60,947 bases of DNA from Ignavibacteriota bacterium (GTDB lineage Bacteria > Bacteroidota > Ignavibacteria > UBA10030 > UBA6906): assembly GCA_016218065.1 (NCBI GenBank), contig JACRFA010000033.1, positions 1 through 60,947 of the forward strand, in the 5' to 3' direction. Position numbers and translations under genes: made by a program. The notes beneath the pieces were generated by a model. It had not been told where the DNA came from. It made no database searches and was given only the letters and a program-made list of their open reading frames with translations. Each line of letters starts with the position of its first letter. The first letter of the stretch is position 1. Of the stretch, positions 35,891 through 60,843 are shown piece after piece.

Positions 35891-36042
35891 TGTGCCCGGT
35901 GACCAATCCCACCGAAGGCGGGAACAACTGACTCGACGTTGGATGGTGGCGTTGAGTTGGTTGTGCCGGGCACAGTTCTTTCAAATCCCAAACAACAAAA
36001 ACCAAATTCCAATTGAGTTCTTGACTATTGAATGAGGCTCCT

Positions 36043-40023: not shown

Positions 40024-40107
40024 CCGGTTGCCGGTCTTCAGTGTTGCAGTTGGATCGTTGACTGAATTTTCCTATGTTCAGTGAGAATCACCATTCTTCC
40101 TGTTCCT

Positions 40108-41325
40108 ATGACACTCAATAGTGATATTCTGAAGCAGACCGAAGCGTATGCCACGGCGCTCCTCACGGAAAAGCTTCCGAACTGGGCGGTGTACCACAAT
40201 CTCGTTCACACTCAACAAACCGTCGATGCGGCCCGAGAAATCGGCGAAGCAGCCAACCTCGGCAAATCGGATCTCGAGAGCGTGTTGATAGCGGCCTGGT
40301 TCCACGATGTGGGCTACACCGAAGGAGCCGACAATCATGAGGAGAGGAGCGGCGAGCTGGCTACTCAGTTCTTACGATCGAGAAACCATCCGCAATCGCG
40401 AATCGATCAGATCGTGGGATGCATCCGCGCAACGAAAGTGCCGCAGTCGCCGAAGACTCTGTTGGAGCAAGTCGTCTGCGACGCGGACACCGTGCATCTT
40501 GGGAAGAAGAGGTTCTTCGAACGAAGCTCGCTCTTGCGCATGGAGCTTGAACTGAAATCCGGTGAAGTGGCGAGCGATCTCGAGTGGCTGAAGAAGAATG
40601 TTGCCTTCGCCGCGGGGAACAGCTTTCACACTGAGTACGCCCGCACGCGGTTTGCGGACCGGCGGCAGAAGAATCTGATGTCGCTGCAAGAGCTTCTGCG
40701 CGAGGAACGCGAGCGTTCCGAGCAGGCGGCCGCCAGACACCAGAAGGCGCTACTCAAAGAGGAAAAGGAGAAGAAGCCCGAGCGCGGCATCGAGACGATG
40801 TTTCGTGTTGTGCCGAAGAATCATCTGGACCTCACGGCGCTTGCCGATCACAAATCGAATATCCTCATCGGAACGAACGGTACAATTCTCGCCATCGTGT
40901 TTAGTCTTCTCGTCAGCAAGCTCGATACGCATCCGTATTTGCTCATTCCGACAATCATCATTATTGCCGTGACGATCGTGACCATGGTGTTCGCGATTCT
41001 CGCAACGCGTCCCAACGTGACTGGTGGAACATTCACTCGCGAAGATATCCGGCAGAAGAAAGTAAACCTCCTGTTCTTCGGGAACTTCCACAAATCATCG
41101 CTCGAAGATTTCGATTGGGGCATGCGTGAGATGATGAAGGACAGCGACTACCTCTACGGAAGCATGATCAAAGATCTCTACTTCCTCGGAAAAGTTCTGG
41201 GCGCGAAATTCCACTACTTGCGGATCGCGTACACGGTGTTTATGTGGGGATTGATTGTTGCCGTGATAGCATTCAGTATCGCGATGCTGACTGCGCCTGT
41301 GGCCGTGCCGATGCCGGTGCAATAG
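40108..41325 (+). CDS. HD-domain phosphohydrolase fused to a C-terminal multi-TM module (DUF5706 / Pycsar-effector-like, from memory)
   Basis: HD motifs (HNLVHT, AAWFHDVGY, CDADTVHLG), a charged linker, then a module beginning FRVVPKNH.DLT.LADHKSNILIG with 3 hydrophobic helices. Confidence 0.65.
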   Translation: MTLNSDILKQTEAYATALLTEKLPNWAVYHNLVHTQQTVDAAREIGEAANLGKSDLESVLIAAWFHDVGYTEGADNHEERSGELATQFLRSRNHPQSRIDQIVGCIRATKVPQSPKTLLEQVVCDADTVHLGKKRFFERSSLLRMELELKSGEVASDLEWLKKNVAFAAGNSFHTEYARTRFADRRQKNLMSLQELLREERERSEQAAARHQKALLKEEKEKKPERGIETMFRVVPKNHLDLTALADHKSNILIGTNGTILAIVFSLLVSKLDTHPYLLIPTIIIIAVTIVTMVFAILATRPNVTGGTFTREDIRQKKVNLLFFGNFHKSSLEDFDWGMREMMKDSDYLYGSMIKDLYFLGKVLGAKFHYLRIAYTVFMWGLIVAVIAFSIAMLTAPVAVPMPVQ

Positions 41326-46474: not shown

Positions 46475-46546
<72 letters not shown>

Positions 46547-47666: not shown

Positions 47667-49277
47667 ATGAAAATCCAATTCTCAATTCTACTCTCTCTGT
47701 TGCTGTGGGCGTCGCAGTGGACATTCGGTCAATCGTTTTCTCCTGTGTGGCGGACTGCACCTTGGGACTCGGGCGGCGTCAGCCCGAGCAGCTTGGTGTG
47801 GTCGATGGTCCGATCCGAGCTTGATCTGGATAATGATGGAAAGAAAGAGTTCCTTGCAGTGAGTTCGTGGAGCAATTCGTACTACAATACTGTATATCTA
47901 TTCGAGGCGGCGGGCAACAATCGGTACGACAGCATCTGGAGCTACTCGTTCTATCCTTACAGCAATGACTACAGCGCTGTAACTGTTGCCGATCTTGATG
48001 GTGATGGACGAAAAGAAATTCTCTGTCTCATCGATCCGTCTGACTCAACGTATCACGGCTTTTATGTATTTGAATGGAATGGAACGAACAACGGATTTCC
48101 GTCGCTGCCGACGACAACGTGGACAATGAGCCTGCGCGGCGCGTTCGATGAGGGAGGCGCGATCATCGCAGGCGATTTCGATAACGATGGCCGCGACGAA
48201 GTTGCTGTGTCGCTGCAAGAGCGCTACTCGATTCCCAAAAGTCGCATCATGATCTTTTCGCTAGCGGCTGGATCATCATTTTCCAATCCGACGTGGAACA
48301 TCGAGATGAACGACTCGACGACGTTTCTGTATGCCGGCTACGCGCTTGAGTCAACGGATCTTGATCGCGACGGCAGAAAAGAAATCGTTACCGCGGGTTG
48401 GGAACGGCATACGTTTGTAGTTTACGAGAACACAGGCTCGGCCAATTCGTATGTGCTGGCCGCGTACATCACGGGCATTGATACCGCAGTTGATCTCTCG
48501 AACATGGGATTTGCAGAGGCGAACTTCGACAACAATGGAACGAACGAATTGTACATCGCCACAGCCGACGGCCGTTTCTACGTCATGACGAACCCCGGCG
48601 ACGTGAGTCAGATTACCGCGGCGAACGTGACCAAGCTTCAGCAATATAATCCCTACAAAGGAATCGCAGGCGTGTCGAAAGGAGATGTTGATGGTGATGG
48701 AAAACCTGAGTTGTACCTCGCGGGAAGCTATCACGAGGCGGTGTTTCAGTGGAAGTACAGCTCCGGCCCCGTGACTAATCCGGCAAGCTACGTCCGCACG
48801 ACAATCTTCCAGGACGACACAACAGATCAGCATACGTCAGGCTCTGATCAGGGATGGCTGCGTCCTTCGAAAGTTGCCGTCGGCGATTTTGATAGCGATG
48901 GCCGACCGGACATGGTAATTGCATCTGCGAGTCTCGCCCGCGACAAATCTGTGCTTACCGTCGTTGAGCAGATTCCGAACGATGTCGTGGAATCGGGTAC
49001 GGAACCGGAGGAGATCGCGCTATTTCAGAACTATCCCAACCCGTTCAACCCAACTACGACTATCGGGTTCAAGGTTCCCGCCTCATCGGCGGCATTGGTG
49101 TCGATGAAGATTTTCGATCAACTCGGTAGCGAGGTCGCAACACTCGTCAACAAGAGACTTGAACCGGGCGACCACACGGTGGTTTGGAATGCATCAACGA
49201 GATCGAGCGGAGTGTATTACTGCCGCCTCACGGTGGGGACGAGGACGTATTTGCGAAAGATGATCCTTGAGCGATAG
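47667..49277 (+). CDS. FG-GAP/VCBS-repeat protein with a T9SS C-terminal sorting domain
   Basis: Signal peptide, six D.D.DG+.E motifs (DLDNDGKKE, DLDGDGRKE, DFDNDGRDE, DLDRDGRKE, DVDGDGKPE, DFDSDGRPD), and the CTD FQNYPNPFNPTTTIGF...YYCRL. Confidence 0.82.
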   Translation: MKIQFSILLSLLLWASQWTFGQSFSPVWRTAPWDSGGVSPSSLVWSMVRSELDLDNDGKKEFLAVSSWSNSYYNTVYLFEAAGNNRYDSIWSYSFYPYSNDYSAVTVADLDGDGRKEILCLIDPSDSTYHGFYVFEWNGTNNGFPSLPTTTWTMSLRGAFDEGGAIIAGDFDNDGRDEVAVSLQERYSIPKSRIMIFSLAAGSSFSNPTWNIEMNDSTTFLYAGYALESTDLDRDGRKEIVTAGWERHTFVVYENTGSANSYVLAAYITGIDTAVDLSNMGFAEANFDNNGTNELYIATADGRFYVMTNPGDVSQITAANVTKLQQYNPYKGIAGVSKGDVDGDGKPELYLAGSYHEAVFQWKYSSGPVTNPASYVRTTIFQDDTTDQHTSGSDQGWLRPSKVAVGDFDSDGRPDMVIASASLARDKSVLTVVEQIPNDVVESGTEPEEIALFQNYPNPFNPTTTIGFKVPASSAALVSMKIFDQLGSEVATLVNKRLEPGDHTVVWNASTRSSGVYYCRLTVGTRTYLRKMILER

Positions 49278-50322
49278 CTCGCACACGTTGGTACCCGAGA
49301 ATCAAGAGCGACATGGAAAGTATCACGGAGACGAACCATAACGCCGCTTGCCCAAGCGCCTGAGTGCGATACAAGATTGTTGCCATATTTCCTATGATGA
49401 GCCACTGAATCACATACGCAGATGTCACGTTGCGTCCGAGCCACTGTAGATATTTTCCGACAGCGGATGCATCGAACAGACGGTTGAGCCATATAACTGT
49501 CATCAACCACACAAAAAGAAATCCGCTGATCCATAGCATGAGAAGTATGCCGTGATGATAGTAGAGCGGAAGGTTCGTGATTGTGTTGATGGCGAAAGAA
49601 GAAGTGGCAATGAGAAGACTCACGATCGTGAAGATGAGAAGTATTCTGACCTTTTGGTCCATTGCAGAGAAGCGCGAGTGGACGGCTGTGGCTTTCGCAA
49701 ACGCGACGCCGAACAGTGAGTACGAGAGCCACGGAACAAGCGGGAAGTACGACCACCAGTCTTCGCTCCAGATGAACGCGGCGACGTAACGGACGACATG
49801 ATTCTCGGTCGCCGGGACAGGAGAGAGAACAGAATTGAGCGCTGCGATCGCGAAAGCGAGAACCAGCGGAACGACAAAGCCGGTGGGCGCAAACGCTCTG
49901 AGCAGCGCAATGCAGATGATGCTCAGTCCTGCGACGGGAAGTATGTCTGCCCCGAAGATGAAGGCGAATGGGTCGAGCTGAAATTGTCCGCGGCTGATAG
50001 AGTACAAGAGGTTCGCGTTCAGTCCGACATTCAGCAGCAAGCCGCCTGCGACGAGCAATACACCGCGGCGCATGAGTTGTGCAAGCGACTTTCTTGAATG
50101 AACAACGAAGTAGCCCATGACCGCGAGAAACACGGGGGCCGCCGGCGGTCCGCCAAGAAAGAGCGAAACGCGGCCGATGGGACTGTGCAGAAGTTCTTCC
50201 GTAGCGAATTGCTCCATGATGTGAACCTGAACCATGAGGACAACTGCGATGCCTTTGAGAAGGTCGGCGAGGGTGCTTCGATGGGGTGACGTGGTCGAGT
50301 TGATGAGATTCATGAATGACAT
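49228..50322 (-). CDS. DUF1624 / heparan-alpha-glucosaminide N-acetyltransferase-like membrane acyltransferase
   Basis: The N-terminus R.STLADLLKGIAVVLMVQVH is typical of DUF1624, followed by about 10 TM helices. I chose the start at ATG 50322 because the ORF-track extension to 50736 runs through repeat DNA and the PqqD-like gene. Confidence 0.6.
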   Translation of the reverse strand: MSFMNLINSTTSPHRSTLADLLKGIAVVLMVQVHIMEQFATEELLHSPIGRVSLFLGGPPAAPVFLAVMGYFVVHSRKSLAQLMRRGVLLVAGGLLLNVGLNANLLYSISRGQFQLDPFAFIFGADILPVAGLSIICIALLRAFAPTGFVVPLVLAFAIAALNSVLSPVPATENHVVRYVAAFIWSEDWWSYFPLVPWLSYSLFGVAFAKATAVHSRFSAMDQKVRILLIFTIVSLLIATSSFAINTITNLPLYYHHGILLMLWISGFLFVWLMTVIWLNRLFDASAVGKYLQWLGRNVTSAYVIQWLIIGNMATILYRTQALGQAALWFVSVILSMSLLILGYQRVRAIAQGSSFANTSSSPP

Positions 50323-50500: not shown

Positions 50501-50773
50501 TTGGATGCTATGGAGAATGCACGCAGTTTCGTCGTCCCCGATAGTCTCGCCGTGAGCGATTCGGGATTTCTGTTTCTTGCGTCGACGGGTGAGACGTTCA
50601 CGCTGAACCTGATCGGCAAGGAAGTGTTCACGATGCTCAAGTCGGGCGCAAGTCTCGCGACAATCAGAGAGGATCTCCAGTCTGCGTATGATGTCGATAG
50701 CTCGACGGTCGAACGCGACCTCGACGATTTTCTCAATCAACTCAAAACTTTCAAACTCGTCAGTGTGCCATGA
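50501..50773 (+). CDS. PqqD-family protein (RiPP-recognition-element-like peptide chaperone)
   Basis: About 90 aa with the PqqD pattern (...GFLFLASTGETFTLNLIGKEVFTMLKSGASLATIREDLQSAYDVDSSTVERDLDDFLNQLKTFKLV). The start is TTG 50501 or ATG 50510. Confidence 0.7.
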   Translation: MDAMENARSFVVPDSLAVSDSGFLFLASTGETFTLNLIGKEVFTMLKSGASLATIREDLQSAYDVDSSTVERDLDDFLNQLKTFKLVSVP

Positions 50774-51804
50774 ACATTGCCGTTACCGGACTGAACGCCC
50801 ACGACAATCCCGGCCCGGGGGTTCCCGTCATCCGCAGCATTCTTGAGAGCGGCGAGTTCACCGGCAGGATCATCGGACTCGCGTACGACTCACTTGAGCC
50901 AGGCATCTATCTCGAAAATATTGCCGCAAAGAGTTACATGATTCCGTATCCGTCGGCGGGGTTGGATGCGCTCTACGACAGAATCGCGGCAATCCACTCT
51001 AAAGAACACATCGATGTCATCATCCCGACGCTTGACTCGGAGCTGTACGGCTTTGTAAAGCTCGCCGACAAACTGCGCGCACTCGGCATCCGAACATTCC
51101 TTCCGACATTCGATCAGCTCAACCTGCGTGCGAAAGATAAGCTCTTCGATTTCTGTTCATCGCACGGTGTGAAGGTTCCAAAGAATCATCTCATCACGAC
51201 TGCTCACGACTTGTATATGCTGCAAGAGAAGTTCGAGTACCCGATTGTCGTGAAGGGAATTTTCTATGAAGCGTCTGTTGCTCACAGCTTCAACGATGTA
51301 ATGACGGCGTTCGAGAAGTTTCGCGCGAAGTGGGGTCTTCCGATCATCATTCAGGAGTACGTCGGAGGCGATGAGTTCAATGTCGTTGCGCTCGGCGACG
51401 GTACCGGTGCAACCGTGGGCGCTGTTGCGATGCGCAAGCTGTACATCACGGATAAAGGCAAAGGCTGGGCGGGCGTTAGCATCGACGACAAAAAGCTCAT
51501 CGAGCTTGCGCAGATCATGATGCAGAAGCTTCAGTGGCGAAGCGGGATGGAACTTGAGTTCATGAAGGAGAAGGAGACCGGCGAGTACTACCTGCTTGAA
51601 ATCAATCCGCGTTTTCCTGCGTGGGTCTATCTGGCAACGGCGACGGGACAGAACCTGCCGTACGCGCTCGTGAAGCTGGCCTACGGAGAACGCGTCGCGC
51701 CATTTACGAAATACGATGTCGGCACCATTTTCGTCCGCTATTCGTGGGATATGATTACGAAGATCAGTGAATTTGAAAAACTTGCCATGACAGGAGAGCG
51801 CTGA
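50770..51804 (+). CDS. ATP-grasp carboxylate-amine/peptide ligase, subfamily unassigned
   Basis: Pre-ATP-grasp domain plus the ATP-grasp core (YPIVVKG..., IIIQEYVGGDEFNVVAL, EYYLLEINPRFPAW). Its start overlaps the PqqD-like stop (ATGA). Confidence 0.8.
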   Translation: MNIAVTGLNAHDNPGPGVPVIRSILESGEFTGRIIGLAYDSLEPGIYLENIAAKSYMIPYPSAGLDALYDRIAAIHSKEHIDVIIPTLDSELYGFVKLADKLRALGIRTFLPTFDQLNLRAKDKLFDFCSSHGVKVPKNHLITTAHDLYMLQEKFEYPIVVKGIFYEASVAHSFNDVMTAFEKFRAKWGLPIIIQEYVGGDEFNVVALGDGTGATVGAVAMRKLYITDKGKGWAGVSIDDKKLIELAQIMMQKLQWRSGMELEFMKEKETGEYYLLEINPRFPAWVYLATATGQNLPYALVKLAYGERVAPFTKYDVGTIFVRYSWDMITKISEFEKLAMTGER

Positions 51805-51806
51805 GC

Positions 51807-53168
51807 ATGTCTGAGAAGAAGAAATACGAACGACCGGTTGTCACGAAACTGCAATCCGGCATCATGAACAAATTCGGGAGCGGGCCGGCGGTTTCCGTTC
51901 TCGAGTCGATCGACGGCGTGCCCATCAAGGACCTTCATGCGAAGTACGGTTCGCCGTTGTTTGTTCTTTCCGAAAACACCATCCGTTCAAATCAGCGCAA
52001 CGCGTATCGCATCTTCAAGAACAGGTACCCGAAAGTGCAGTTCGCTTGGTCGTACAAGACGAACTACCTGAATGCTGTCTGCTCGGTGTTCCATCAGGAA
52101 GGTTCGTGGGCAGAAGTGGTGTCGGAATTCGAGTACGACAAGGAGCGCAAGCTGGGAATTCCCGCGGAGCAAATTCTCTTCAACGGGCCGGACAAAAGCG
52201 CTGCCGCGCTCACGAAGGCGATCTCCGAGGGCGCGAAGATTCACATCGATCACTTCGATGAGTTGTACAGCATCACCGGCATCTGCGAGCGCTCTCAGTT
52301 GAAAGCTCACGTTGCGATCCGTGTCAACATGGACGTCGGCGTGTATCCACAGTGGGATCGGTTCGGACTCAACTATGAAAACGGCGAGGCATGGCAGGCG
52401 TTGAAGCGAATCGCGGCGAACAAACGCCTGAGACTCGTGGGACTTCATACGCATATCGGCACCTACATGATGACTGCCGAGGCTTATCGGATTGCCGCGA
52501 CCAAACTCGCCACGCTGGCAAAGAGTCTCAGAGACGAATTCGATGTGACGCTCGACTACATCGATGTCGGAGGCGGATTTGCTTCACACAACACGCTTAT
52601 CGGACAGTATCTTCCTGCGGAGGAAGTTGTTCCTTCGATGGAGCAATACGCCGATGCGATCGCGTCGGGCCTGAAGCAGGGATCATTCAAGCACGACGAG
52701 ATGCCGATGCTTATTCTCGAAACCGGGCGCGCCTTGATTGATGACGCGGGATTTTTGATTTCGAAAGTCATCGCCAACAAGCGCCTCTCAACCGGCAGAC
52801 GCGCGATCATTGTTGATGCGGGCGTAAACCTGATGTTCACGAGCTTCTGGTACAAACACAAGATTTCGCCTGCACAGCCGATCAGCGCGCATGCCGAAGA
52901 TGCCGTGATCTACGGACCGCTCTGCATGAATATCGACGTCATTCGCGACGGCATTCTTCTGCCGACGCTCAATCCGGGCGACAGTCTTGTGCTGCACCGC
53001 GTCGGGGCGTACAACATGACGCAGTGGATGCAGTTCATCACGCTGCGTCCGAATGTGGTGATGGTGATGAGCGATGGCACGGTGGAATTGATTCGCAAAG
53101 CAGAGACGCTGGAATCTGTTTCGGAGAACGAAGTGCTGCCGGAACAATTGAGAGCGAAACGTACATAG
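51807..53168 (+). CDS. PLP-dependent decarboxylase, fold type III (Orn/DAP/Arg decarboxylase family), substrate unknown
   Basis: Candidate PLP lysine in WSYKTNY, plus the HTHIGT, DVGGGF and GAYN blocks. It starts 2 nt after the ATP-grasp stop. Confidence 0.8.
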   Translation: MSEKKKYERPVVTKLQSGIMNKFGSGPAVSVLESIDGVPIKDLHAKYGSPLFVLSENTIRSNQRNAYRIFKNRYPKVQFAWSYKTNYLNAVCSVFHQEGSWAEVVSEFEYDKERKLGIPAEQILFNGPDKSAAALTKAISEGAKIHIDHFDELYSITGICERSQLKAHVAIRVNMDVGVYPQWDRFGLNYENGEAWQALKRIAANKRLRLVGLHTHIGTYMMTAEAYRIAATKLATLAKSLRDEFDVTLDYIDVGGGFASHNTLIGQYLPAEEVVPSMEQYADAIASGLKQGSFKHDEMPMLILETGRALIDDAGFLISKVIANKRLSTGRRAIIVDAGVNLMFTSFWYKHKISPAQPISAHAEDAVIYGPLCMNIDVIRDGILLPTLNPGDSLVLHRVGAYNMTQWMQFITLRPNVVMVMSDGTVELIRKAETLESVSENEVLPEQLRAKRT

Positions 53169-53188
53169 AAGATTCTTTCTTTGATCAC

Positions 53189-55321
53189 ATGACCTTCTTC
53201 ATCGACTCAATTCTGTATAGCTACGCGCAGATCTTCTTTTCCAACCGACGCTGGCTGGGAGCGGTTCTGCTCGCCGGAACATTTCTTGCGCCGCACATCG
53301 GGCTTGTGTCGCTGCTTGGGGTGGTCATTGCAAATCTCGTCGCGTATACGCTCAAATTCGACGAGGCGAAAATCAAAAGCGGATTCTATGGCTTCAACGG
53401 AATTCTCTTCGGCGCCGGAGCCGCGTTCTACTTTGAGTTGACGCCATTTCTTCTGGCGCTCGTGATTCTCTTCATCGTCATTACGTTTTTCATCGCGGCA
53501 GTGTTGGAACATCTTCTTGCGTCTGTGGTGAACCTTCCCGGACTCAGTCTGCCGTTCGTCATCTCGCTCTTCATCTTTGTCATCTTTCTTTCAAACTTCA
53601 ACACCATCAACCCGAATATATTGCAAAGCAATGATGAGGCGCTCTTCTCATTTCTTCCGTATGGAGTGAAGGCGTATCTCAGATCTCTTGCATTGATTTT
53701 CTTCCAACCGAATATTTTCACGGGCGCTTTGTTCGCGCTCGCTCTTCTCTTCCTTTCCCGCGTCATGTTCATCCTGAGCCTCACGGGATTCCTGATCGGA
53801 AGCCTCACGCTGCACCTGCTCTTTCCTGCTCCGTCGGATAGCATGACGATTCTCGCCGGCTTCAACTCGATTCTCACCGCGTGTGCCCTTGGCGGGAATT
53901 TGGTGATTCCGTCGCGCAAGTCTCTTGTGCTTACCCTGATAGCATCGGTGTTGGTTGTTGTGCTGACGGCATTCTTCTACAAATTGCTTGTGCCATACGC
54001 GCTGCCTGTGCTTGTTCTGCCATTCAACTTCTTGACGTTGTCGGTCATCTACAGTTTGAAATTCCGTCGCGAGCAGAGCGACATTGTTTTGCTCTACTTC
54101 CTGCCCGGCACGCCCGAGGAGAATTACTACTACCATCACAATCGTCTTGCGCGCTTCGAGCGATTCAAGACTGTGGTTCCTGAGCTTCCATTCTTTGGAG
54201 AATGGAGGATTTCACAGGGACACAGCGGAGCGCACACGCACAAAGACAGGTGGCGGTTCGCATGGGATTTCACGGTTGTGGATGAGACTGGGTCGGAATT
54301 CTCCGGCGATGGAAATCTGGCGAAGGATTACTATTGCTACAATCTGCCTGTCGTTGCGCCGCTCGACGGCACAGTAGTGCGTGTTGTGAAAGGCGTGCAG
54401 GAGAACGCGATTGGCGAAGCGAATCTCCAGTCGAACTGGGGAAACACCGTCGTGCTCGATCACGGCAGCGGCATCTTCTCGGCGGCGTCGCATCTCGAAC
54501 AATTCTCAATCAAAGTGTCGGTTGGCGATGTTGTGAAGAAGGGTGATCCACTTGGCGCTTGCGGCAACAGCGGACGCTCGCCCGTCCCTCACGTGCATTT
54601 CCAATTCCAACCGACAGACAAATTAGGCGACAAGACGACCGAATATCCGTTCGGTCAATACGTTGAGCGGAGGAATGGCGCTCTCATCCTTCACGCGTTC
54701 GATCATCCGACCGAAGGCATGCTCGTGCAAAACCTCGGCACGAACAAGACAATGAAGAAGGCGTTCGACTTCAAGCTGGGCGACAAGCTGCAATTTCACT
54801 GTGTGGCCGGGAAGACGGAGTTCGACGAAGAGTGGGAGGTGAAGGTCGATATCTACAATACGCTCTACATCGAATCTTCACGCAACGCAACTGTCACGGT
54901 TGCATTGGTAGGCAAAGTATTCTATCTGACGAACTTCGTCGGCAACAGACAGTCGGCGTTGTATCATTTCTATCTCACGGCTGTGCAGGTTCCGCTCAGC
55001 TACGAACCAAACCTGCACTGGACCGACCAGTACCCAATCTCCCGCATGCTCGCGAACCAAATTCGCTATCTGTCAGAATTCTTCATTCTCTTCGCGCCGC
55101 AGCTGCGTGCGCATGCTTCGTTCGCGTTCAAGAAGAACTCGGCGCCCGGTCAGTTCATCATTTCTAATGTGATCGATATCGTTGGCTCAGGAGTATTCGC
55201 TTCGTACAAGCGCCGACGGTCGGGAGAAATCTCGATTAGCGACGAAGGGCGGATAAGCCGCATTGATGTTCACGCGCCGTCAGAGTTTTCGGCAACAGCA
55301 ATCATTTCGGAGGAAGAATAA
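53189..55321 (+). CDS. fusion protein: urea-transporter (UT)-like membrane domain + M23 metallopeptidase + uncharacterised C-terminal domain of about 200 aa
   Basis: The N-terminal roughly 330 aa are UT-like (YSYAQIFFSN...GFYGFNGILFG..., about 9-10 TM helices). The M23 core is present (..HTHKD.., GNTVVLDHGSG, ACGNSGRSPVPHVHFQF). I recognised no motif in the last approximately 200 aa. Confidence 0.75.
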   Translation: MTFFIDSILYSYAQIFFSNRRWLGAVLLAGTFLAPHIGLVSLLGVVIANLVAYTLKFDEAKIKSGFYGFNGILFGAGAAFYFELTPFLLALVILFIVITFFIAAVLEHLLASVVNLPGLSLPFVISLFIFVIFLSNFNTINPNILQSNDEALFSFLPYGVKAYLRSLALIFFQPNIFTGALFALALLFLSRVMFILSLTGFLIGSLTLHLLFPAPSDSMTILAGFNSILTACALGGNLVIPSRKSLVLTLIASVLVVVLTAFFYKLLVPYALPVLVLPFNFLTLSVIYSLKFRREQSDIVLLYFLPGTPEENYYYHHNRLARFERFKTVVPELPFFGEWRISQGHSGAHTHKDRWRFAWDFTVVDETGSEFSGDGNLAKDYYCYNLPVVAPLDGTVVRVVKGVQENAIGEANLQSNWGNTVVLDHGSGIFSAASHLEQFSIKVSVGDVVKKGDPLGACGNSGRSPVPHVHFQFQPTDKLGDKTTEYPFGQYVERRNGALILHAFDHPTEGMLVQNLGTNKTMKKAFDFKLGDKLQFHCVAGKTEFDEEWEVKVDIYNTLYIESSRNATVTVALVGKVFYLTNFVGNRQSALYHFYLTAVQVPLSYEPNLHWTDQYPISRMLANQIRYLSEFFILFAPQLRAHASFAFKKNSAPGQFIISNVIDIVGSGVFASYKRRRSGEISISDEGRISRIDVHAPSEFSATAIISEEE

Positions 55322-55324
55322 GCC

Positions 55325-55963
55325 ATGAAAAAGTTCGTCTTGATTAGCGTCTCCGCGATCCTGATTATCGTCGGTGTGCTTGCGACGAGCGTCCTCTCGC
55401 AGAAATCGTCCAGCATACTGACAGCGTTCCATGAGTCATTGAAGCAGGAGGACGCGAAGCAGTATCCCAAAGCGATTCAGAGTCTTGAAGCGGGTTACAA
55501 GCAGAGCAAAGATGACTACCTCGTGAACCTGCGGCTCGGGTGGCTGCATTATCTCGCGAAGAACTATGATGAATCGAAGAAATACTACGCACAGGCATTC
55601 TCGCTGAGCGGTAGCAAGAGCGTCGAAGCGCTGCTCGGAAGGACGCTGCCGCTCTCTGCGGTGAATGACTGGGATGCAGTGGTCGGAGCGTATATGTCGA
55701 TTCTGCGGCTCGACCCAATGAACTACTCAGCGAATCTGCGGCTCGGACAAATCATGCTCAACCGCGGCATGTATGCTGAAGCAAAAGAATATTTGGAAAA
55801 GGCGCATACGGCGTATCCCGGATCGTACGAGCCGAACCTCTCGCTCGGCTGGACACATTACTATCTCGGCAACAAGCAGAAGGCGACTAGCCTGCTCACA
55901 ACTGCGCTGATGCTGAGTCCCGGCGACTCGTTGGCGACAAGAGGGTTGAATCTCCTCAAGTAG
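55325..55963 (+). CDS. membrane-anchored/secreted TPR-repeat protein
   Basis: An N-terminal hydrophobic helix followed by several TPR-like repeats (..A...Y..A..L.P.N..A...LG......). It starts 3 nt after the UT-M23 stop. Confidence 0.7.
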   Translation: MKKFVLISVSAILIIVGVLATSVLSQKSSSILTAFHESLKQEDAKQYPKAIQSLEAGYKQSKDDYLVNLRLGWLHYLAKNYDESKKYYAQAFSLSGSKSVEALLGRTLPLSAVNDWDAVVGAYMSILRLDPMNYSANLRLGQIMLNRGMYAEAKEYLEKAHTAYPGSYEPNLSLGWTHYYLGNKQKATSLLTTALMLSPGDSLATRGLNLLK

Positions 55964-55994
55964 ATTTGACGAAATGAGTCTTGAAGGAGCCGCA

Positions 55995-56216
55995 ATGAGC
56001 CGGGCGTTCGTTCGCGAAAATGATGATCAGTGGCTGCACGATGTTGCGCCGACGATGAGTGCATTGCTTCTCTTTCTCACGCGAGAGAACAATGGCATCA
56101 GAGTGATTGAGGAGAGAAGTTATCTCGACGCTGATGGGCGCGAAGTGCACGTCATGAGCAACGGATTGTCGTACGCGAAAGATGCTGAGAACAAGTGGCG
56201 CGTCGTTGAGGAGTGA
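55995..56216 (+). CDS. small hypothetical protein (73 aa)
   Basis: The ATG at 55995 is preceded by GAAGGAG at a 5-nt spacing. The N-terminus is MSRAFVRENDD. I recognised no family. Confidence 0.45.
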   Translation: MSRAFVRENDDQWLHDVAPTMSALLLFLTRENNGIRVIEERSYLDADGREVHVMSNGLSYAKDAENKWRVVEE

Positions 56217-56492
56217 TTGTATAGCGATGGAACCGGACGCAGGCCCGGTTCATCACCGCGCGTTTTGCTCCCGCCGATTTTGTTCGTATGACTTGCGTGA
56301 ATATGACAGGAGAGCCTTTTTCAACACCCTGTTAGTAGCAAACTACCGACTACCGCAAGAATCACCCAAATCAATAACAGAATTCTTCTGGACATATCCA
56401 CCTCCCCGTTCACCCACTCATCAACACTTCACTTGTTATGACCTTCGGCTGGTAGTTTACACTTTTCCAACAGACATGCAAGAGAAGTTTTG

Positions 56493-56609
56493 GTAGAGAT
56501 TCTCCATCGGGAATCGCACTACCATTGTCATTCTGTCCCGACATAGTCGGGATCATAGAGGCGCCGTGCCTGCCGCCTGCCTGCCGGTAGACAGGGCAGG
56601 GCAGACAGG
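56493..56609. repeat. inverted-orientation copy of the element terminus plus GC-rich hairpins
   Basis: gtagagattctccatcgggaatcgcactaccattgtcattctg is the reverse complement of the cagaatgacaatggt..cgatt.ccgat.gggaatctctac ends at 29230-29268 and 38866-38906. It is followed by tcccgacatagtcggga and the cctgcc..ggcagg hairpins. Confidence 0.75.
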
Positions 56610-56931
56610 TATTTGCCTTTTTGTATTTGCGAGCGAACGGCGTTACCAACCGTGCCCTTCTAAATCGGATTTGAGAGCGGTCGATGCGTTGCTTTTTTAT
56701 AGCGCTTTGTGTATGATTCCTGCGAGTTCCATCTCATGCAAGGAAAACGGCCTTTTCCTCACTGCAAATTCTCCCGTTTCTGCTCGGCCGCGCTGATCGT
56801 TCTTTAAGATTTCAAGATCCGAGCAATTTTCCATTCAACCCTTTCACATTCGTCCACATCGCTGTCAAGCTTCTTGCTCGCGACGATGGTGCAAAATATT
56901 TGCCGACTTCAGCATGAAAAGCCCATAGACT

Positions 56932-59900
56932 ATGTTGAGGTTTCAGAAAATACACGCAGTTTCTTTTGTTCTCCTCTGTACAGCATTCACAATGGAATGC
57001 CCAGCGCAGACATCGCGTTTCTTCGATGCATGGCGTTGGGTGGAGTTCGACCTGGAATCCGGACTTCCGTCGAACCACACTTACGCGATCCTTGAAACCG
57101 AACAGGGAACTCCTTGGGTAATCACGAAGCTTGGCGTGGCATGGTACGATGACTACGTTTGGCATCAGGTTCCGTTTCCCGCGCGAACTCCCCTGAGCAA
57201 ACCGCAATCATTCTATTCTGACCGACTCGGTAGGGTGATTGTTGTTCACGATTCCTCTCTCTTCATCGGCGATACGACCGGCTTCGTTCGCCTTGATATC
57301 GCCAGTGTTCTCCAAGCAGCGCCGCTGACCGATGGCGGGGTGATGCTCGTACGCGGAGAATTGGGCAAGCCTAAAAGCATCGATATCTGGAATGGGACGA
57401 GATTAGTCGCTGTCGAGTCACCAGGACCAATTGCGGCTGGCGATGTGCCGGGACTTTGGCAAACTCAAACCGGAAGTGTGTGGCTCACCGCGGGGAATGG
57501 TCTCTTCTCTTTTGAGCGCGCAGCTTGGAGGCAACGATTCCGCGCGCAAGTAGCGGCTTTTTCTCTCGCCTGTGCGCGACTGGTAGAGAACGACTCCGGC
57601 AGCGGGTTGGCTCTCATTTATCGTCCGTTCGCTTCGCGCGGGCTGTGGGAGTGGAAGAGTGACAGAGAGTTTGTTTTGAATTCTACGATGAAGGGGGAAG
57701 ATATTGTTGGCGCTGATATCGCGCCCGATGGAACTGCATTTCTCGCCTTCAGCTCAGGATATTCTTTGATGCGGTATCACGGTCGGTGGTCTTCACCAAC
57801 ACTTGAACGACTCGCGCCTCGTCAGGTCGAGATGGTGAAGTTCAGACGAAACGGCGATCTATGGGTTTGCACCGAACGGGGGTTGCGCTTGTTCAAATAC
57901 TCATCCACTCGCTGGCAGTTTGAGTCGAAGCGATCCATGTCTCCCGATATGTATGTGAACGACATTCTGCTCGCGACAGACAGTTCACTCTGGCTCGCCA
58001 CTGGAGGCGGTCTGCGCGTAATCAGAAAAGACGGAACAGAGACAAGCATCCGGCAAATTCTCGGTCGAACAATCTACACGGCGACCGGATTGCTCGAAGA
58101 CAGAAATCGCAATATGTGGGTGTCCAGCGGATCCGATTTCACAGGCGCATACAGATGGAACGGCATACAGTGGAGGCGAGTCGGCATCGGCACTCCGCTC
58201 GACAGTACGCATATACACAGAATGCATCTTGACAAGAAAGGAAGAGTGTGGCTGCTTGGCATCTCGAAAAGTCTCGAACCGGCGCGCGATGAGAGAGAAC
58301 CCGGCGCCTTTGTTTTTGATGTTGGGAAGATTACAAGATGGGGCGTGCCCGAGGGCCTTTCCGGTGGTCGCGTCTATGCGGTAGAGGAAGGAAACGATGG
58401 ATCACTCTGGTTTGGAACGCTGGCAGGTCTGAGTTGCTGGAAGAATGGGGCGTGGCAGCATCGAAACCGGCAGCAACTCTTCTCAGCGCAGAAAGTCTTC
58501 GCGCTTGCATTCGACAAGCAGGGTCGATTGTGGTTCGCCGATGGCAAAGGCATTGTCGGCACGATTGATTCTACGGGCGTAGCGCGTCGCATCACGACGG
58601 ACGATGGCTTGCTTGACACGCGCGTGCTCGAGATTCGTGTCGATGAGAAGAACAGAGTCTGGTGCACGACTCCTGTCGGACTCGCGGTGTATGCCGATGG
58701 CGCATGGGGAGAGTTCGATGAATCGTCAGGAATCCTGAACGCCAATCTCTGGCCTGTGCTGCCGACACGTGATCGAGTATTTGTCGGGTCGCATTCCGGG
58801 CTTACGATTCTCACACTCACTCAAAATGATTTTGAAGCTCCCCGCGTCTACCTAGATCCGGCCATGACCAGCGGACGCACCGCGCTTTTGCGGTGGAAAG
58901 CGATCGCTCGTTGGAATGAAATTCCTTCTCGCCAAATCCAAACACGATATCGCATCGACGATCAGCCGTGGTCTCGTTGGTCAACGGCGCGTGAACTCAG
59001 CTTGCTGGACCTCGCGCCGGGTAATCACAACTTCGACGTGCAGACAAAATCGATTCTCGGCGGCGTGCGTTCATTCAGGACAGTGCAACAACCAGTGACC
59101 ATCACCATCCCGCTCACTGAAGATCCGCGCATCATGGCGCCGGTTGGAGTCGTGTTTCTGATCCTTTTGGTGTTTGCAATCGGAACGTCTGCCCGTGAAC
59201 GACGCGAGAAGCAACGGAGGCTCCGCGAAGAACTTCGCCTCGAACACGAGCATTCCGAGCGACTGGCGCAAGTGGACAAGCTCAAGTCGCGCTTCTTCGC
59301 GAACATTTCGCACGAGTTTCGCACCCCGCTCACTCTCGTGATCGGACCCATCGGGCAAGCGTTGTCGAAGATTGAAGATACCTGGGCAAGGGAGAAACTC
59401 GGCATGGCGCATCGCAACGCGGAAAAGCTGCATGATCTCATCAACCAACTACTCGACTTTTCCAGGATTGAATCGGGCACGATGAAGATAGCGGCGACTC
59501 GAGGAGACGTTGTTCCATTCGTGCAGCGAATTGTGCAATCATTTCACTCATGGGCTGAGCAGAAGAAGCAGAAGCTGGAGTTCATAAGCAGCGACGAAAA
59601 GATCGAGGGCCTTTTTGATCGGAGTAATCTCGAAAAGATTCTCAATAATCTCATTTCGAATGCGCTAAAGTTTTCGCCGGAGAAAGGTGAAATCATAATC
59701 CGGCTGTCGGTTGCAGAATACTTGGCGGAAGACCGAACACAGCGAAAACGAATGCTGATCTCCGTCTCGGATACGGGCATTGGCATCTCTGCGGATCATC
59801 TTCCACACATTTTCGATCGGTTCTACCGTGTGGATGATTCTCACGTCATCGAAGGAACAGGCATTGGTCTAGCGTTGACGAAAGAGTTGGTCGAGCTTCT

Positions 59901-60843
59901 TCATGGGCAGATGACCGTGGAGAGTGAGGTGGGAAAGGGAACGGAGTTTACCGTTCTGTTGCCGCTCGAATTCGATGCGAGTGAGATTGCAGCAGAGCTT
60001 GCTCCCGAACCGGAAAGGAGTCTGGTTTCACCATTGACAGAATCCAGCGGCGATCGACCGGCTGAAAAGGAGTCAGACGACAGCGCCGAGACAATTGTGC
60101 TGATCGTTGAGGACAGCGATGATGTCAGGGCCTACGTCAAGGAGTACCTCACCGATGAGTATTCGGTCATCGAAGCGCGAGATGGCAGCGAGGGCTTGGC
60201 AAAGGCGTGCGCCGTTGTGCCTGATCTTGTCATCAGCGACGTTATGATGCCGATGATGGATGGCTACGAGCTTGCCCGTGAGCTTAAGCGCGACGAGCGA
60301 ACGAGCCACATTCCCATCATTCTTCTGACTGCTCGTGCAGGCGCTGAAGATAAGTTGGAGGGTCTTGAACTTGGCGCCGACGATTATCTCACAAAACCTT
60401 TCGACGCTCGTGAGCTGCTTGCTCGCGCCAAGAACCTGATTGAGGGCAGGAGACGGCTCCGTGAGAAGCTCAGTAAGAGCGTGCCGCTGAGGCCAGGCGA
60501 AGTAGCACTTGCTTCGATGGAAGACGAATTCTTGAAAAAGGCGATTGACGTTGTTGACAGATGTATGGGAGATGAACGCTTCAGTGTCGATCAGTTCAGC
60601 CTGCAGATGAACATGAGCCGGATGCAATTGTACAGAAAACTTCGGGCGCTCACGAATCAGTCTGCTACCGAGTTTGTTCGCAGGCTTCGATTGCAGCGCG
60701 CGCATGATATGCTCGTCAAGAAGGTCGGTACGATCTCCGAAATCGCATACCAGACTGGCTTTGGAAGCCTGACGTATTTCGAGCGTTGCTATCACGAGCA
60801 GTTCGGCTGTACACCCCGCGACACCAGAGCCAAGCTCGCCTGA
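56932..60843 (+). CDS. hybrid two-component system sensor kinase/response regulator with an AraC-type HTH (HTCS architecture)
   Basis: Signal peptide, a long periplasmic region with regulator-propeller-like W-rich repeats and a Y_Y_Y-like segment, a TM helix, HisKA (FFANISHEFRTPLT), HATPase (GTGIGLALTKELVELLHG), REC (IVEDSDDV...ISDVMMPMMDG) and AraC HTH (..GFGSLTYFERCYHEQFGCTP). Confidence 0.88.
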   Translation: MLRFQKIHAVSFVLLCTAFTMECPAQTSRFFDAWRWVEFDLESGLPSNHTYAILETEQGTPWVITKLGVAWYDDYVWHQVPFPARTPLSKPQSFYSDRLGRVIVVHDSSLFIGDTTGFVRLDIASVLQAAPLTDGGVMLVRGELGKPKSIDIWNGTRLVAVESPGPIAAGDVPGLWQTQTGSVWLTAGNGLFSFERAAWRQRFRAQVAAFSLACARLVENDSGSGLALIYRPFASRGLWEWKSDREFVLNSTMKGEDIVGADIAPDGTAFLAFSSGYSLMRYHGRWSSPTLERLAPRQVEMVKFRRNGDLWVCTERGLRLFKYSSTRWQFESKRSMSPDMYVNDILLATDSSLWLATGGGLRVIRKDGTETSIRQILGRTIYTATGLLEDRNRNMWVSSGSDFTGAYRWNGIQWRRVGIGTPLDSTHIHRMHLDKKGRVWLLGISKSLEPARDEREPGAFVFDVGKITRWGVPEGLSGGRVYAVEEGNDGSLWFGTLAGLSCWKNGAWQHRNRQQLFSAQKVFALAFDKQGRLWFADGKGIVGTIDSTGVARRITTDDGLLDTRVLEIRVDEKNRVWCTTPVGLAVYADGAWGEFDESSGILNANLWPVLPTRDRVFVGSHSGLTILTLTQNDFEAPRVYLDPAMTSGRTALLRWKAIARWNEIPSRQIQTRYRIDDQPWSRWSTARELSLLDLAPGNHNFDVQTKSILGGVRSFRTVQQPVTITIPLTEDPRIMAPVGVVFLILLVFAIGTSARERREKQRRLREELRLEHEHSERLAQVDKLKSRFFANISHEFRTPLTLVIGPIGQALSKIEDTWAREKLGMAHRNAEKLHDLINQLLDFSRIESGTMKIAATRGDVVPFVQRIVQSFHSWAEQKKQKLEFISSDEKIEGLFDRSNLEKILNNLISNALKFSPEKGEIIIRLSVAEYLAEDRTQRKRMLISVSDTGIGISADHLPHIFDRFYRVDDSHVIEGTGIGLALTKELVELLHGQMTVESEVGKGTEFTVLLPLEFDASEIAAELAPEPERSLVSPLTESSGDRPAEKESDDSAETIVLIVEDSDDVRAYVKEYLTDEYSVIEARDGSEGLAKACAVVPDLVISDVMMPMMDGYELARELKRDERTSHIPIILLTARAGAEDKLEGLELGADDYLTKPFDARELLARAKNLIEGRRRLREKLSKSVPLRPGEVALASMEDEFLKKAIDVVDRCMGDERFSVDQFSLQMNMSRMQLYRKLRALTNQSATEFVRRLRLQRAHDMLVKKVGTISEIAYQTGFGSLTYFERCYHEQFGCTPRDTRAKLA

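Follow-up and report, generated by a model that had tools for sequence, protein, structure and literature searches.

A conserved operon of Ignavibacteria and Bacteroidota with a PqqD-like protein, an ATP-grasp ligase, a PLP decarboxylase and a UT/M23 membrane fusion: a candidate ligate-then-decarboxylate pathway

What do five adjoining genes make together when they encode a PqqD-like protein, an ATP-grasp ligase, a pyridoxal 5′-phosphate (PLP)-dependent decarboxylase, a membrane protein in which a urea transporter (UT)-like domain is fused to an M23 metallopeptidase, and a tetratricopeptide repeat (TPR) protein? These genes are located on contig JACRFA010000033.1 of the Ignavibacteriota bacterium assembly GCA_016218065.1, which was analyzed as one stretch of 60,947 nt, in the following called the window. 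A reading of the sequence alone had described them as an uncharacterized operon of five to six genes and knew of no described pathway that combines the modules. This agrees with our searches: no description of the operon was found in the full-text literature, and all operon proteins stay below the curated NCBIfam cut-offs. Each part falls into a known superfamily, with Pfam confirming every domain call of that reading, and it is their combination that is not described in the literature searched. The answer which we tentatively favor is a cytoplasmic pathway that ligates first and decarboxylates second, scaffolded by the PqqD-like protein and coupled to an envelope-spanning module.

For the question of whether the genes belong together, 88 related loci were compared. 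A scan of species-representative genomes with a single protein gave one locus, from Mucilaginibacter calamicampi. Another 80 metagenome loci were collected with the ATP-grasp alignment, and seven were added by exact protein look-up, including those of Ignavibacterium album, Mucilaginibacter robiniae and Pedobacter fastidiosus. Gene order was read from a tblastn map and from an all-against-all gene-family census of the loci, which originate from Ignavibacteria, Mucilaginibacter and Pedobacter. Every contig that is of sufficient length has the genes in the order PqqD, ATP-grasp, decarboxylase, UT/M23 and then TPR. Because this order is identical in loci from two phyla and goes beyond chance, the five genes almost certainly form one unit, and the co-oriented arrangement proposed for the window is indeed conserved across related genomes. 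Identities between the phyla are 51–61% for the ligase and the decarboxylase.

In the window, the stop codon of the pqqD-like gene and the start codon of the ATP-grasp gene share the ATGA at 50770–50773. Gaps of 2 nt (51804 to 51807), 20 nt (53168 to the ATG at 53189) and 3 nt (55321 to 55325) separate the following genes. Behind the end of the TPR gene at 55963, a GAAGGAG Shine-Dalgarno (SD) sequence at 55983–55989 precedes an ATG at 55995, which lies 31 nt past the TPR stop codon and opens a 73-aa open reading frame (ORF). All these junctions and coordinates had been given correctly before. According to the alignment of orthologues, the PqqD-like protein more likely starts with the ATG at 50510 (87 aa) than with the TTG at 50501. 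The N-termini of homologues fix the start of the UT/M23 gene at 53189 and not at an upstream GTG, by which a 765-aa ORF from 53024 was ruled out as this gene. A 502-aa ORF taken as the DUF1624 gene was replaced by 49228–50322 (364 aa). Promoter and terminator scans of the locus stayed at background level, and Rfam gave no riboswitch or known RNA upstream of the operon except for a tRNA gene at 46475–46546 on the minus strand (69 bits), which lies just 5′ of the gene for a putative outer-membrane beta-barrel and forms the left boundary of the cluster in its extended form.

The loci show two layouts. In Ignavibacteria-type loci, with an ATP-grasp at least 59% identical to the window protein, gene packing is tight, and the downstream part leads from the TPR gene to a gene for a protein of ~280 aa, the putative barrel, and often to DUF1624. 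Bacteroidota-type loci (ATP-grasp 52–56% identical to that of the window) have a gene for a ~390-aa protein between UT/M23 and TPR. In these loci, a LytS-type histidine kinase gene and a gene for a LytTR regulator are usually found directly 5′ of the operon, in Pedobacter only 6 nt from pqqD. Together with its closest relatives, loci L004, L008 and L009, the window represents a rearranged Ignavibacteria type, in which the ~280-aa gene and DUF1624 have moved 5′ of pqqD. Between these two genes, the window and L004 have an enlarged FG-GAP gene for a cargo protein of the type IX secretion system (T9SS; 47667–49277 in the window). The divergent orientation of DUF1624 noted earlier holds for the window; in I. 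album and others the gene is situated inside the operon. The neighborhood census of the loci brought up no other enzyme by which the pathway could be named.

The possible chemistry can be approached through the decarboxylase. It matches the Pfam families Orn_Arg_deC_N (E 2e-30) and Orn_DAP_Arg_deC (E 8e-14) and has both domains, the PLP lysine (K84) and the catalytic cysteine (C373) of the alanine-racemase-fold PLP decarboxylases. The closest solved structure is FigC/FslC (7kh2, E 1.4e-62), while the matches to diaminopimelate decarboxylase (DAPDC; 2e-38 at best) and BtrK (2j66 and 7ru7; ~3e-26) are weaker. The FigC clade includes SbnH, AcsE, MccE, BtrK, DAPDC and D-ODC, and several of its members decarboxylate an amino-acid moiety which is already conjugated to another group (Li et al., PMC7857480). 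In DAPDC, lysine/ornithine decarboxylase (L/ODC) and arginine decarboxylase (ADC), an acidic residue beside the catalytic Cys takes the side-chain amino group of the substrate (PMC7857480). The FigC residues reported by Li et al. were mapped onto the decarboxylase via the HMMER alignment. The specificity helix has T345, W348 and Y349 in place of T327, T330 and Y331 in FigC. As in FigC, Met comes after the catalytic Cys, and an acidic residue that could take a free side-chain amine is missing. Where FigC binds citrate through H357, R387 and N389, the decarboxylase has I376, Q406 and M408.

In 66 orthologues from both layouts, K84, T345, W348, Y349, C373-M-N-I-D377 and Q406-W-M-Q409 are invariant, and the substrate should therefore be the same throughout the family. 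Together with the very high conservation across phyla, the invariant pockets point to one conserved substrate rather than to a variable natural product. Since FigC is the closest relative, the Cys-Met pair is kept, the citrate-binding residues are replaced and the clade acts on conjugated moieties, ligation followed by decarboxylation is the order we propose. We consider it rather probable that the substrate is an amino acid conjugated at its side chain. The conjugated group, as judged from the pocket residues, is probably not citrate and would sit in a neutral pocket. The analogy to the BtrJ/BtrK pair of butirosin biosynthesis drawn in the sequence-only reading is reasonable in so far as the decarboxylase falls into the FigC/SbnH/BtrK/MccE/DAPDC clade (PMC7857480). 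All NCBIfam matches of the decarboxylase are below cut-off. It was not assigned to FigC/FslC, the N-citrylornithine decarboxylases, because of its score (model NF041039: 236 bits, cut-off 500) and the replaced citrate-binding residues. Membership in LysA was also rejected, based on the score (TIGR01048: 234 bits, cut-off 297.9), the Met after the Cys, and a specificity helix with T345, W348 and Y349 where an Arg for the distal carboxylate was looked for.

The ATP-grasp ligase matches ATPgrasp_Ter (E 5e-12) and ATP-grasp_3 (E 1e-7), and its motifs are typical of ATP-grasp enzymes. It is 63–79% identical across Ignavibacteria and 51–56% identical to the Bacteroidota proteins, with K162, E277, N279 and R281 invariant. 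Its sole sequence relative in the PDB is an uncharacterized structural-genomics protein (2pn1, E 1.5e-7), which was also the best Foldseek hit of the AlphaFold2 model (pLDDT 91.7), followed by biotin carboxylase, carbamoyl-phosphate synthase (CPS) and PurD at TM-scores of ~0.7. The graspetide (MdnB/MdnC-type) family is absent from the Pfam, NCBIfam and PDB matches and from the top 50 Foldseek neighbors, and none of the tests used identified the protein as a LysX/RimK- or Ddl-type enzyme. A RimK- or LysW-like extension of an acidic C-terminus was considered as well. In the window, the UT/M23 protein ends in EEE and the product of the 73-aa ORF in EE; the C-termini of 120 UT/M23 homologues are not conserved, many ending in K, and the 73-aa ORF is not syntenic, so that this idea was rejected.

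The PqqD-like protein matches Pfam PqqD (E 2.5e-11), and its best NCBIfam matches are the lasso_PqqD chaperones (37 and 31 vs. cut-offs of 70 and 80). PqqD-like domains of this kind are known as recognition elements (RREs) for peptides that are made by the ribosome and modified after translation (RiPPs). Among solved structures, the protein is closest to the lasso RRE TbiB1 (5v1u, E 2.8e-7), to which it aligns without gaps over residues 14–83 (70 residues). In RRE-leader complexes, an Asn at the end of strand 3 fixes the kink of a Pro, an Asp of helix 3 forms a hydrogen bond to a Tyr hydroxyl, and an aromatic residue splits two pockets (PMC13381572, PMC13622209). Among 77 orthologues of the PqqD-like protein, N33 is invariant, D70 is present in 70 (91%), and positions 74 and 60 are aromatic in all. 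The correspondence of D70, F74 and Y60 is supported by the TbiB1 alignment. Judged by these sequence features the protein is a canonical discrete RRE-type protein, as had been assumed.

Which peptide could this protein bind? In lasso, LPP and fosfazinomycin pathways, the leaders bound by discrete RREs carry the motif [Y/W]xxPx[L/V/I/F/A] (PMC13381572, PMC13622209). Ahead of the part aligned with FigC and LysA, the decarboxylase family has an N-terminal extension of about 28 residues (residues 1–28) with the motif (K/R)-Y-E-R-P-Φ-Φ-x-K-x3-G-x-M-N-K-F-G, conserved to at least 90% in 66 sequences of both locus types. Its KYERPΦΦ matches the RRE-bound leader motif and is the only conserved and terminal YxxPxΦ in the loci. 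The two partners also change together: where the PqqD-like protein has Asp70, the tail has Tyr in 64 of 64 loci (63 YERP, one YEKP), and in all four loci with Ser or Ile at position 70 for which the tail is available, it reads FERP. The case for docking is drawn from the terminal position of the extension, the type of the RRE and this co-change, the motif being weak by itself. On this sequence-based footing, we hold the chances to be evenly balanced that the PqqD-like protein binds the decarboxylase tail.

A precursor peptide encoded in cis was not found. No precursor ORF is conserved in the gaps within the operon. Across the 88 loci, only pqqD and its shadow frames recur among ORFs of 25–120 aa, only pqqD shadows are conserved among ORFs of 10–34 aa with up to 10 kb of flanking sequence, and none of the ORFs of 10–70 aa carries [YW]xxPxΦ. 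The earlier remark that there is no convincing precursor gene can thus be extended in cis to ORFs down to 10 aa in all 88 loci. For the suggestion of a RiPP-like product this means that the RRE is present, but the defining cis-encoded precursor peptide gene is absent.

The second half of the unit concerns the membrane. The UT-like domain of the fusion protein covers 289 of the 292 positions of PF03253 (E 7.5e-55) and is related to dvUT (E 1.5e-25), and the peptidase domain matches PF01551 (E 3.6e-16). The M23 catalytic set H351, D360, H435 (SHL), H468 and H470 (HxH) is invariant in 238 homologues, with His and Asp spaced as H-x8-D and not as H-x3-D. The best NCBIfam matches of the M23 region are peptidoglycan endopeptidases, below cut-off. 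UT subunits have both termini facing the cytoplasm according to cryo-EM (PMC11589576). The stretch that links the last UT helix to the M23 domain has neither a signal peptide nor a hydrophobic segment. In the 238 homologues, Lys and Arg average 1.4, 2.5, 1.0, 1.5 and 2.7 in alternate UT loops vs. 0.05–0.08 in three opposite loops, and the K/R-rich loops include the segment right after the last UT helix. Because of this charge bias, the missing transmembrane segment and the topology of UT proteins, the M23 domain and the C-terminal domain are predicted to be cytoplasmic. The idea that a product is processed by the UT-M23 protein on the outer side of the membrane is weakened by a peptidase predicted to face the cytoplasm and not the periplasm. 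The C-terminal 240 residues are modeled with a pLDDT of 90.5, and the best Foldseek matches are LolA, RseB and YmcC-like proteins (E 6e-5, probability 1.0), at TM-scores of only 0.26–0.38.

Would the UT-like domain conduct urea? Urea transport requires a hydrogen-bond ladder, Q(Pb)-T(5b)-T(5a)-Q(Pa) (PMC11589576). In an alignment to human UT-A2, these positions are occupied in the window protein by L169, V276, S120 and Q14, respectively. Proteins of the Ignavibacteria type have Leu instead of Q(Pb) and Val instead of T(5b), those of the Sphingobacteriaceae type Ile or Val instead of Q(Pa) and Ala or Ser instead of Q(Pb). That different ladder positions were lost in each lineage suggests a relaxed or changed selectivity of the pore, not a single ancestral change. 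The name 'urea transporter' is doubtful because of the degenerate ladder, and the domain, going by these residues, may let through a different small solute or serve only as an anchor of the peptidase. UT plus M23 is among the bacterial domain combinations given in a 2026 survey, with no function assigned (PMC12998343).

The TPR protein begins with a hydrophobic segment (MKKFVLISVSAILIIVGVLATSVLS). Its orthologues are 39–61% identical and occur in all complete loci, and weak matches to the PrsT, PgaA and BcsC models are far below cut-off. For the putative barrel protein, no match was obtained in Pfam or NCBIfam. It shares 51% identity with its L004 orthologue and has weak similarity to the proteins of ~280 aa encoded 3′ of TPR in L002, L005 and L006; in most relatives its gene directly follows the TPR gene. 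The ~280-aa family has signal peptides, is rich in Tyr and ends with an aromatic residue, features compatible with an outer-membrane beta-barrel fold. With hhalign, it is linked to the ~390-aa protein of the Bacteroidota type, namely to its C-terminal half (probability 77.5%, E 2e-5); the N-terminal part of the ~390-aa protein resembles the TPR family (probability 94%). Based on the family features and this profile link we count the barrel as a sixth core member, and the unit is larger than described earlier.

These observations can be arranged into a mechanism. In the cytoplasm, the ATP-grasp enzyme would join a carboxylate to the side chain of an amino acid and leave the alpha-amino-acid end free, from which the decarboxylase would strip the alpha-carboxylate to give an amide-linked primary amine. 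The PqqD-like protein would grip the KYERPΦΦ tail of the decarboxylase instead of a gene-encoded precursor, and would thereby either tether the decarboxylase to the translationally coupled ATP-grasp ligase or present the tail to the latter. The reasons for tail docking are the lack of a cis ORF, the TbiB1-like N33, D70, F74 and Y60, the sole terminal YxxPxΦ and the co-change. The M23 peptidase and the LolA-like domain, at the cytoplasmic face of a repurposed UT-type pore, would trim or release the product, and the TPR protein and the barrel would carry it on to the cell surface. This membrane module is suggested by the invariant M23 residues, the inward UT termini, the signal sequence of the TPR protein and the barrel features. 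The data show that the unit is conserved, where its proteins belong by family, that the catalytic residues are intact, that a precursor is lacking in cis, and that the tail motif exists and changes with PqqD. From this we infer the chemistry, the binding of the tail by PqqD, the topology, the product and the direction in which it is transported, and export of the product is open to doubt. Doubtful, too, is the most far-reaching version. In this version, the RRE would be re-used as an enzyme-docking adaptor that assembles an ATP-grasp/decarboxylase complex or presents the tail as a built-in carrier arm. The isopeptidase-like M23 domain in the cytoplasm would release the product, and the whole would be a new envelope-directed pathway without a precursor peptide, met to date only in Ignavibacteriota and Bacteroidota.

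Several points weigh against this mechanism. The ATP-grasp ligase has no characterized close relative, and its Foldseek neighbors are generic and give no clue to the substrate. The topology is derived only from homology and the positive-inside rule, and to our knowledge there is no precedent for a cytoplasmic M23 domain. The LolA-like assignment, with its low TM-scores, is weakly founded, and a narrow UT pore with a degenerate polar ladder may be an anchor only. The loci without Asp70 form one clade in the ATP-grasp tree, so that the co-change of D70 and Tyr was probably a single event, although a sequence divergence of 61–74% is spanned. A bare YxxPxΦ pattern also matches buried conserved sites, namely WG.PII in the ATP-grasp enzyme and YSYP.F in the T9SS protein, and a chance match is accordingly not negligible. 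Finally, the roles of DUF1624, the T9SS protein and the LytTR system are left unexplained.

Other explanations account for part of the same data. The unit could edit or recycle stem peptides of peptidoglycan, possibly on lipid-linked precursors at the inner membrane face. The PqqD-like protein would then bind the stem, the ATP-grasp enzyme would add a residue like D-Asp ligase or Ddl-type enzymes, and the decarboxylase would act on a diaminopimelate-like end. M23 would cleave stems, the LolA-like domain would hold the lipid carrier, and DUF1624 would acetylate across the membrane. This fits M23 as a family of peptidoglycan peptidases with endopeptidases as best NCBIfam matches, the relationship of the decarboxylase to DAPDC, the hydrophobic ligand suggested by a LolA-like fold, and the failure to find a precursor in cis; the very high conservation with invariant pockets would imply one universal substrate, and relatives in Acyl_transf_3 include peptidoglycan O-acetyltransferases. 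However, we know of no RRE that binds D-amino-acid peptides, no mur, fem or glycosyltransferase genes are linked in the loci, the YERP tail and its co-change with PqqD stay unexplained, and a system absent from many Bacteroidota does not belong to core wall synthesis. The decarboxylase is, moreover, much nearer to FigC than to DAPDC and has no acidic residue beside the catalytic Cys of the sort used by DAPDC, L/ODC and ADC (PMC7857480). On the whole, we regard stem-peptide editing as unlikely. A quite unlikely alternative is a pheromone pathway, or one resembling those of pyrroloquinoline quinone (PQQ), mycofactocin or the pearlins, in which PqqD presents a conserved but unlinked ribosomal peptide that has a YxxP leader. 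Extension or modification of this peptide would fall to the ATP-grasp enzyme and the decarboxylase, M23 would cut it, a small product would be exported, and LytS/LytTR would sense it in Sphingobacteriaceae. The combination of an RRE, a peptidase and modifying enzymes follows the logic of PQQ and mycofactocin, the RRE is of the lasso type with intact leader-binding residues, and the histidine kinase and LytTR genes lie directly 5′, in Pedobacter 6 nt from pqqD. Very short precursors are also easily missed, such as the 21/22-mer FzmZ (PMC13622209). On the other hand, the 88 loci with their flanks of up to 10 kb contain no conserved ORF of at least 10 aa but pqqD and none with YxxPxΦ, known systems of this kind hold their precursor in cis, and the Tyr/Phe co-change concerns the tail of the decarboxylase. 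PLP decarboxylases need a free alpha-amine and so cannot act on a normal peptide C-terminus.

A role in urea or nitrogen handling, with the fusion protein as urea channel and the other genes making or using urea-related compounds, could invoke the full-length UT domain (E 7.5e-55), the name 'urea transporter' given to the fusion by NCBI and JGI, and the resemblance of the ATP-grasp model to the bicarbonate-activating enzymes biotin carboxylase and CPS. It is made very improbable by the degenerate ladder in both lineages, by a urea_trans_yut (NCBIfam) score of 118 against a cut-off of 274.6, and by the lack of any urease, allophanate hydrolase, biotin carrier or ureohydrolase gene linked in the loci. 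For a chance adjacency of unrelated genes nothing speaks beyond the lack of a known pathway; the synteny and the overlapping or near-abutting genes effectively refute it, and its probability is negligible.

How does the proposed ligate-then-decarboxylate pathway compare with known systems? As in FigA/FigC (FslA/FslC), SbnH and AcsE, formation of a side-chain amide would come first and removal of the alpha-carboxylate second (PMC7857480), and the Cys-Met loop and the Thr and Tyr of the specificity helix are common to FigC and the decarboxylase. Unlike there, the ligase is an ATP-grasp enzyme and not a synthetase for NRPS-independent siderophores, there is no exporter of the major facilitator superfamily and no TonB receptor, and PqqD, UT/M23, TPR and barrel have no counterpart in the FigA/FigC system. 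The butirosin proteins BtrJ and BtrK likewise combine an ATP-grasp enzyme with a DAPDC-like PLP decarboxylase acting on a tethered amino acid. In contrast to BtrI/J/K, the loci contain no acyl carrier protein, PP-binding domain or other btr gene, and BtrK is a much weaker match than FigC; that a carrier, if any, is the decarboxylase's own tail is speculative. With the lasso B1 proteins TbiB1 and FusB1 the PqqD-like protein shares the leader-holding Asn, Asp and aromatic residues, and a YERPΦΦ is found in the locus (PMC13381572); unlike in lasso pathways, the loci have no B2 protease, cyclase or precursor, and the motif is part of an enzyme of 453 aa. With PQQ, mycofactocin and pearlin pathways the system would share an RRE, modifying enzymes and a peptidase, high conservation across phyla and a small product. 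Those pathways invariably have the gene for their scaffold peptide in cis and rely on radical-SAM or PEARL enzymes, none of which was found in the loci.

For the envelope part, AlgK/AlgE, PgaA, BcsC and PelB offer a precedent for a periplasmic TPR with an outer-membrane barrel, and the Bacteroidota loci have a TPR-like/barrel fusion. Unlike in exopolysaccharide exporters, no glycosyltransferase or synthase occurs in any locus, and the barrel is small (~260 residues) and has no detectable sequence kinship to theirs. The fusion protein has the full-length fold of UT channels such as dvUT, UT-A and UT-B; it differs from them by the partly hydrophobic urea ladder and by an extra M23/LolA-like extension of ~400 residues with no described function.

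The features of the locus are listed in Table 1.

Table 1. Genes, domains and motif of the operon and its surroundings in the window.
Feature	Position	Strand	Remark
Putative outer-membrane beta-barrel, 284 aa	46795–47649	+	Sixth core member
FG-GAP repeat protein with T9SS C-terminal sorting domain, 536 aa	47667–49277	+	Recurrent accessory
DUF1624/HGSNAT_cat/Acyl_transf_3 membrane acyltransferase, 364 aa	49228–50322	-	Accessory, divergent here
PqqD-like RRE protein, 87 aa	50510–50773	+	Alternative start TTG 50501
ATP-grasp ligase, 344 aa	50770–51804	+	Pfam ATPgrasp_Ter, ATP-grasp_3
Fold-type-III (alanine-racemase-fold) PLP decarboxylase, 453 aa	51807–53168	+	FigC/DAPDC clade
Y-E-R-P-V-V, decarboxylase residues 7–12	51825–51842	+	Candidate PqqD docking site
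UT-like/M23/LolA-like inner-membrane fusion, 710 aa	53189–55321	+	Pfam, PDB matches, model
UT-like domain of the fusion, residues ~4–312	53198–54124	+	Pfam UT
M23 metallopeptidase domain of the fusion, residues ~340–476	54206–54616	+	Pfam Peptidase_M23
LolA-like C-terminal domain of the fusion, residues 471–710	54599–55318	+	Foldseek of model
TPR protein with N-terminal signal/anchor sequence (predicted periplasmic), 212 aa	55325–55963	+	Pfam TPR_2, TPR_19
73-aa ORF with strong SD	55995–56216	+	Neighbor, outside conserved unit

Among the accessory genes, DUF1624 (Pfam HGSNAT_cat/Acyl_transf_3) is present in 14 loci. The protein of the window is 45% identical to that of I. album, the gene of which follows the barrel gene in the same operon. 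The FG-GAP T9SS protein of the window (FG-GAP_3, E 2e-32, and Por_Secre_tail) has a 66% identical orthologue in L004, and over its C-terminal ~250 aa it is 25% identical (E 4e-20) to a T9SS cargo protein of ~280 aa, the gene of which is found directly 5′ of pqqD in 19 Ignavibacteria-type loci. The members of that cargo family, with weak FG-GAP, FlgD_ig and Por_Secre_tail domains, are 41–54% identical to one another. In three Bacteroidota-type loci (L063, 6388–7188; L069, 7100–7900; L075, 7031–7831), a gene for a 266-aa T9SS cargo protein is inserted between pqqD and the ATP-grasp gene, which is a second, independent tie of the operon to T9SS cargo. Two loci (L061, 4688–5431; L075, 9200–9967) have a gene for a ~250-aa lipoprotein between the ATP-grasp and decarboxylase genes, and the operon thus tolerates insertions in Bacteroidota-type layouts. 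Eight Ignavibacteria-type loci carry a divergent gene for a secreted transglutaminase-core protein of 477–480 aa about 1 kb 5′ of the T9SS gene (e.g., L012, 4161–5603, minus strand); with its signal peptide and divergent orientation, this protein was not counted as a lasso B2 protein. A LysM-repeat/periplasmic-binding protein is encoded downstream in eight Bacteroidota-type loci (e.g., L045, 14605–16677). An anti-phage defense function was dropped after PADLOC gave no defense-model match for seven proteins.

The 73-aa ORF (MSRAFVRENDDQW...), which had been considered a possible sixth gene, has no counterpart in any other locus according to tblastn, and no match in Pfam, NCBIfam or PADLOC. Its family (~72 aa) comprises 91 representatives (50% clustering) when E-values up to 1e-3 are admitted and 47 with a limit of 1e-10, all named members being 'hypothetical'. 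It is a real gene and a neighbor only. Between this ORF and the next gene, ~700 nt (56217–56931) are without a convincing gene and without an Rfam match; they contain a G+C-rich inverted repeat at ~56569–56610 and a terminator-like hairpin with a T-run at 56598–56619. Directly downstream, a 1303-aa hybrid two-component protein (Reg_prop, HisKA, HATPase_c, Response_reg, AraC HTH) is encoded at 56932–60843 on the plus strand, and L004 has unrelated kinases at this position. Elsewhere on the plus strand of the window, a 414-aa protein with an HD domain and a PycTM (Pycsar effector transmembrane; E 2.6e-36) domain is encoded at 40081–41325, which may be a cyclic-nucleotide-related defense effector with no obvious adjacent cyclase. 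At 34061–37521 (plus strand) there are two more T9SS cargo genes, for a 609-aa FG-GAP/UnbV_ASPIC protein and a 497-aa protein, with sorting domains 41–49% identical to that of the operon-linked FG-GAP protein.

How widespread is the system? For the fusion protein of the window, at least 981 relatives were counted (E up to 1e-5), and for that of Mucilaginibacter at least 3377 (E up to 1e-10), both as 90% clusters among 8000 candidates. Both UT and M23 domains are present in all relatives among the matches listed. Named relatives of the window type are Ignavibacteria, Ignavibacteriaceae, Melioribacteraceae and 'Bacteroidota bacterium', and those of the other type are many Mucilaginibacter and Pedobacter species as well as Daejeonella. 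None of the named matches listed lies outside Ignavibacteriota and Bacteroidota; distant relatives were not scanned systematically. Current database names of the proteins are 'urea transporter', 'peptidoglycan DD-metalloendopeptidase family protein', 'biotin carboxylase', 'carbamoyl-phosphate synthase large subunit' and 'ATP-grasp domain-containing protein', and the annotation as 'urea transporter' is probably wrong.

The system is thus spread over thousands of protein clusters. Its hosts are uncultured Ignavibacteria and culturable Mucilaginibacter and Pedobacter, and every gene has an orthologue in cultured strains. Should the predicted topology be right, two familiar folds would be put to a new use, with an M23 peptidase that faces the cytoplasm and is attached to a degenerate UT pore. 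If the contact between the PqqD-like protein and the decarboxylase tail is true, the biology of RREs would extend beyond substrate peptides, and genome mining that treats every RRE as a flag for RiPPs would over-call.

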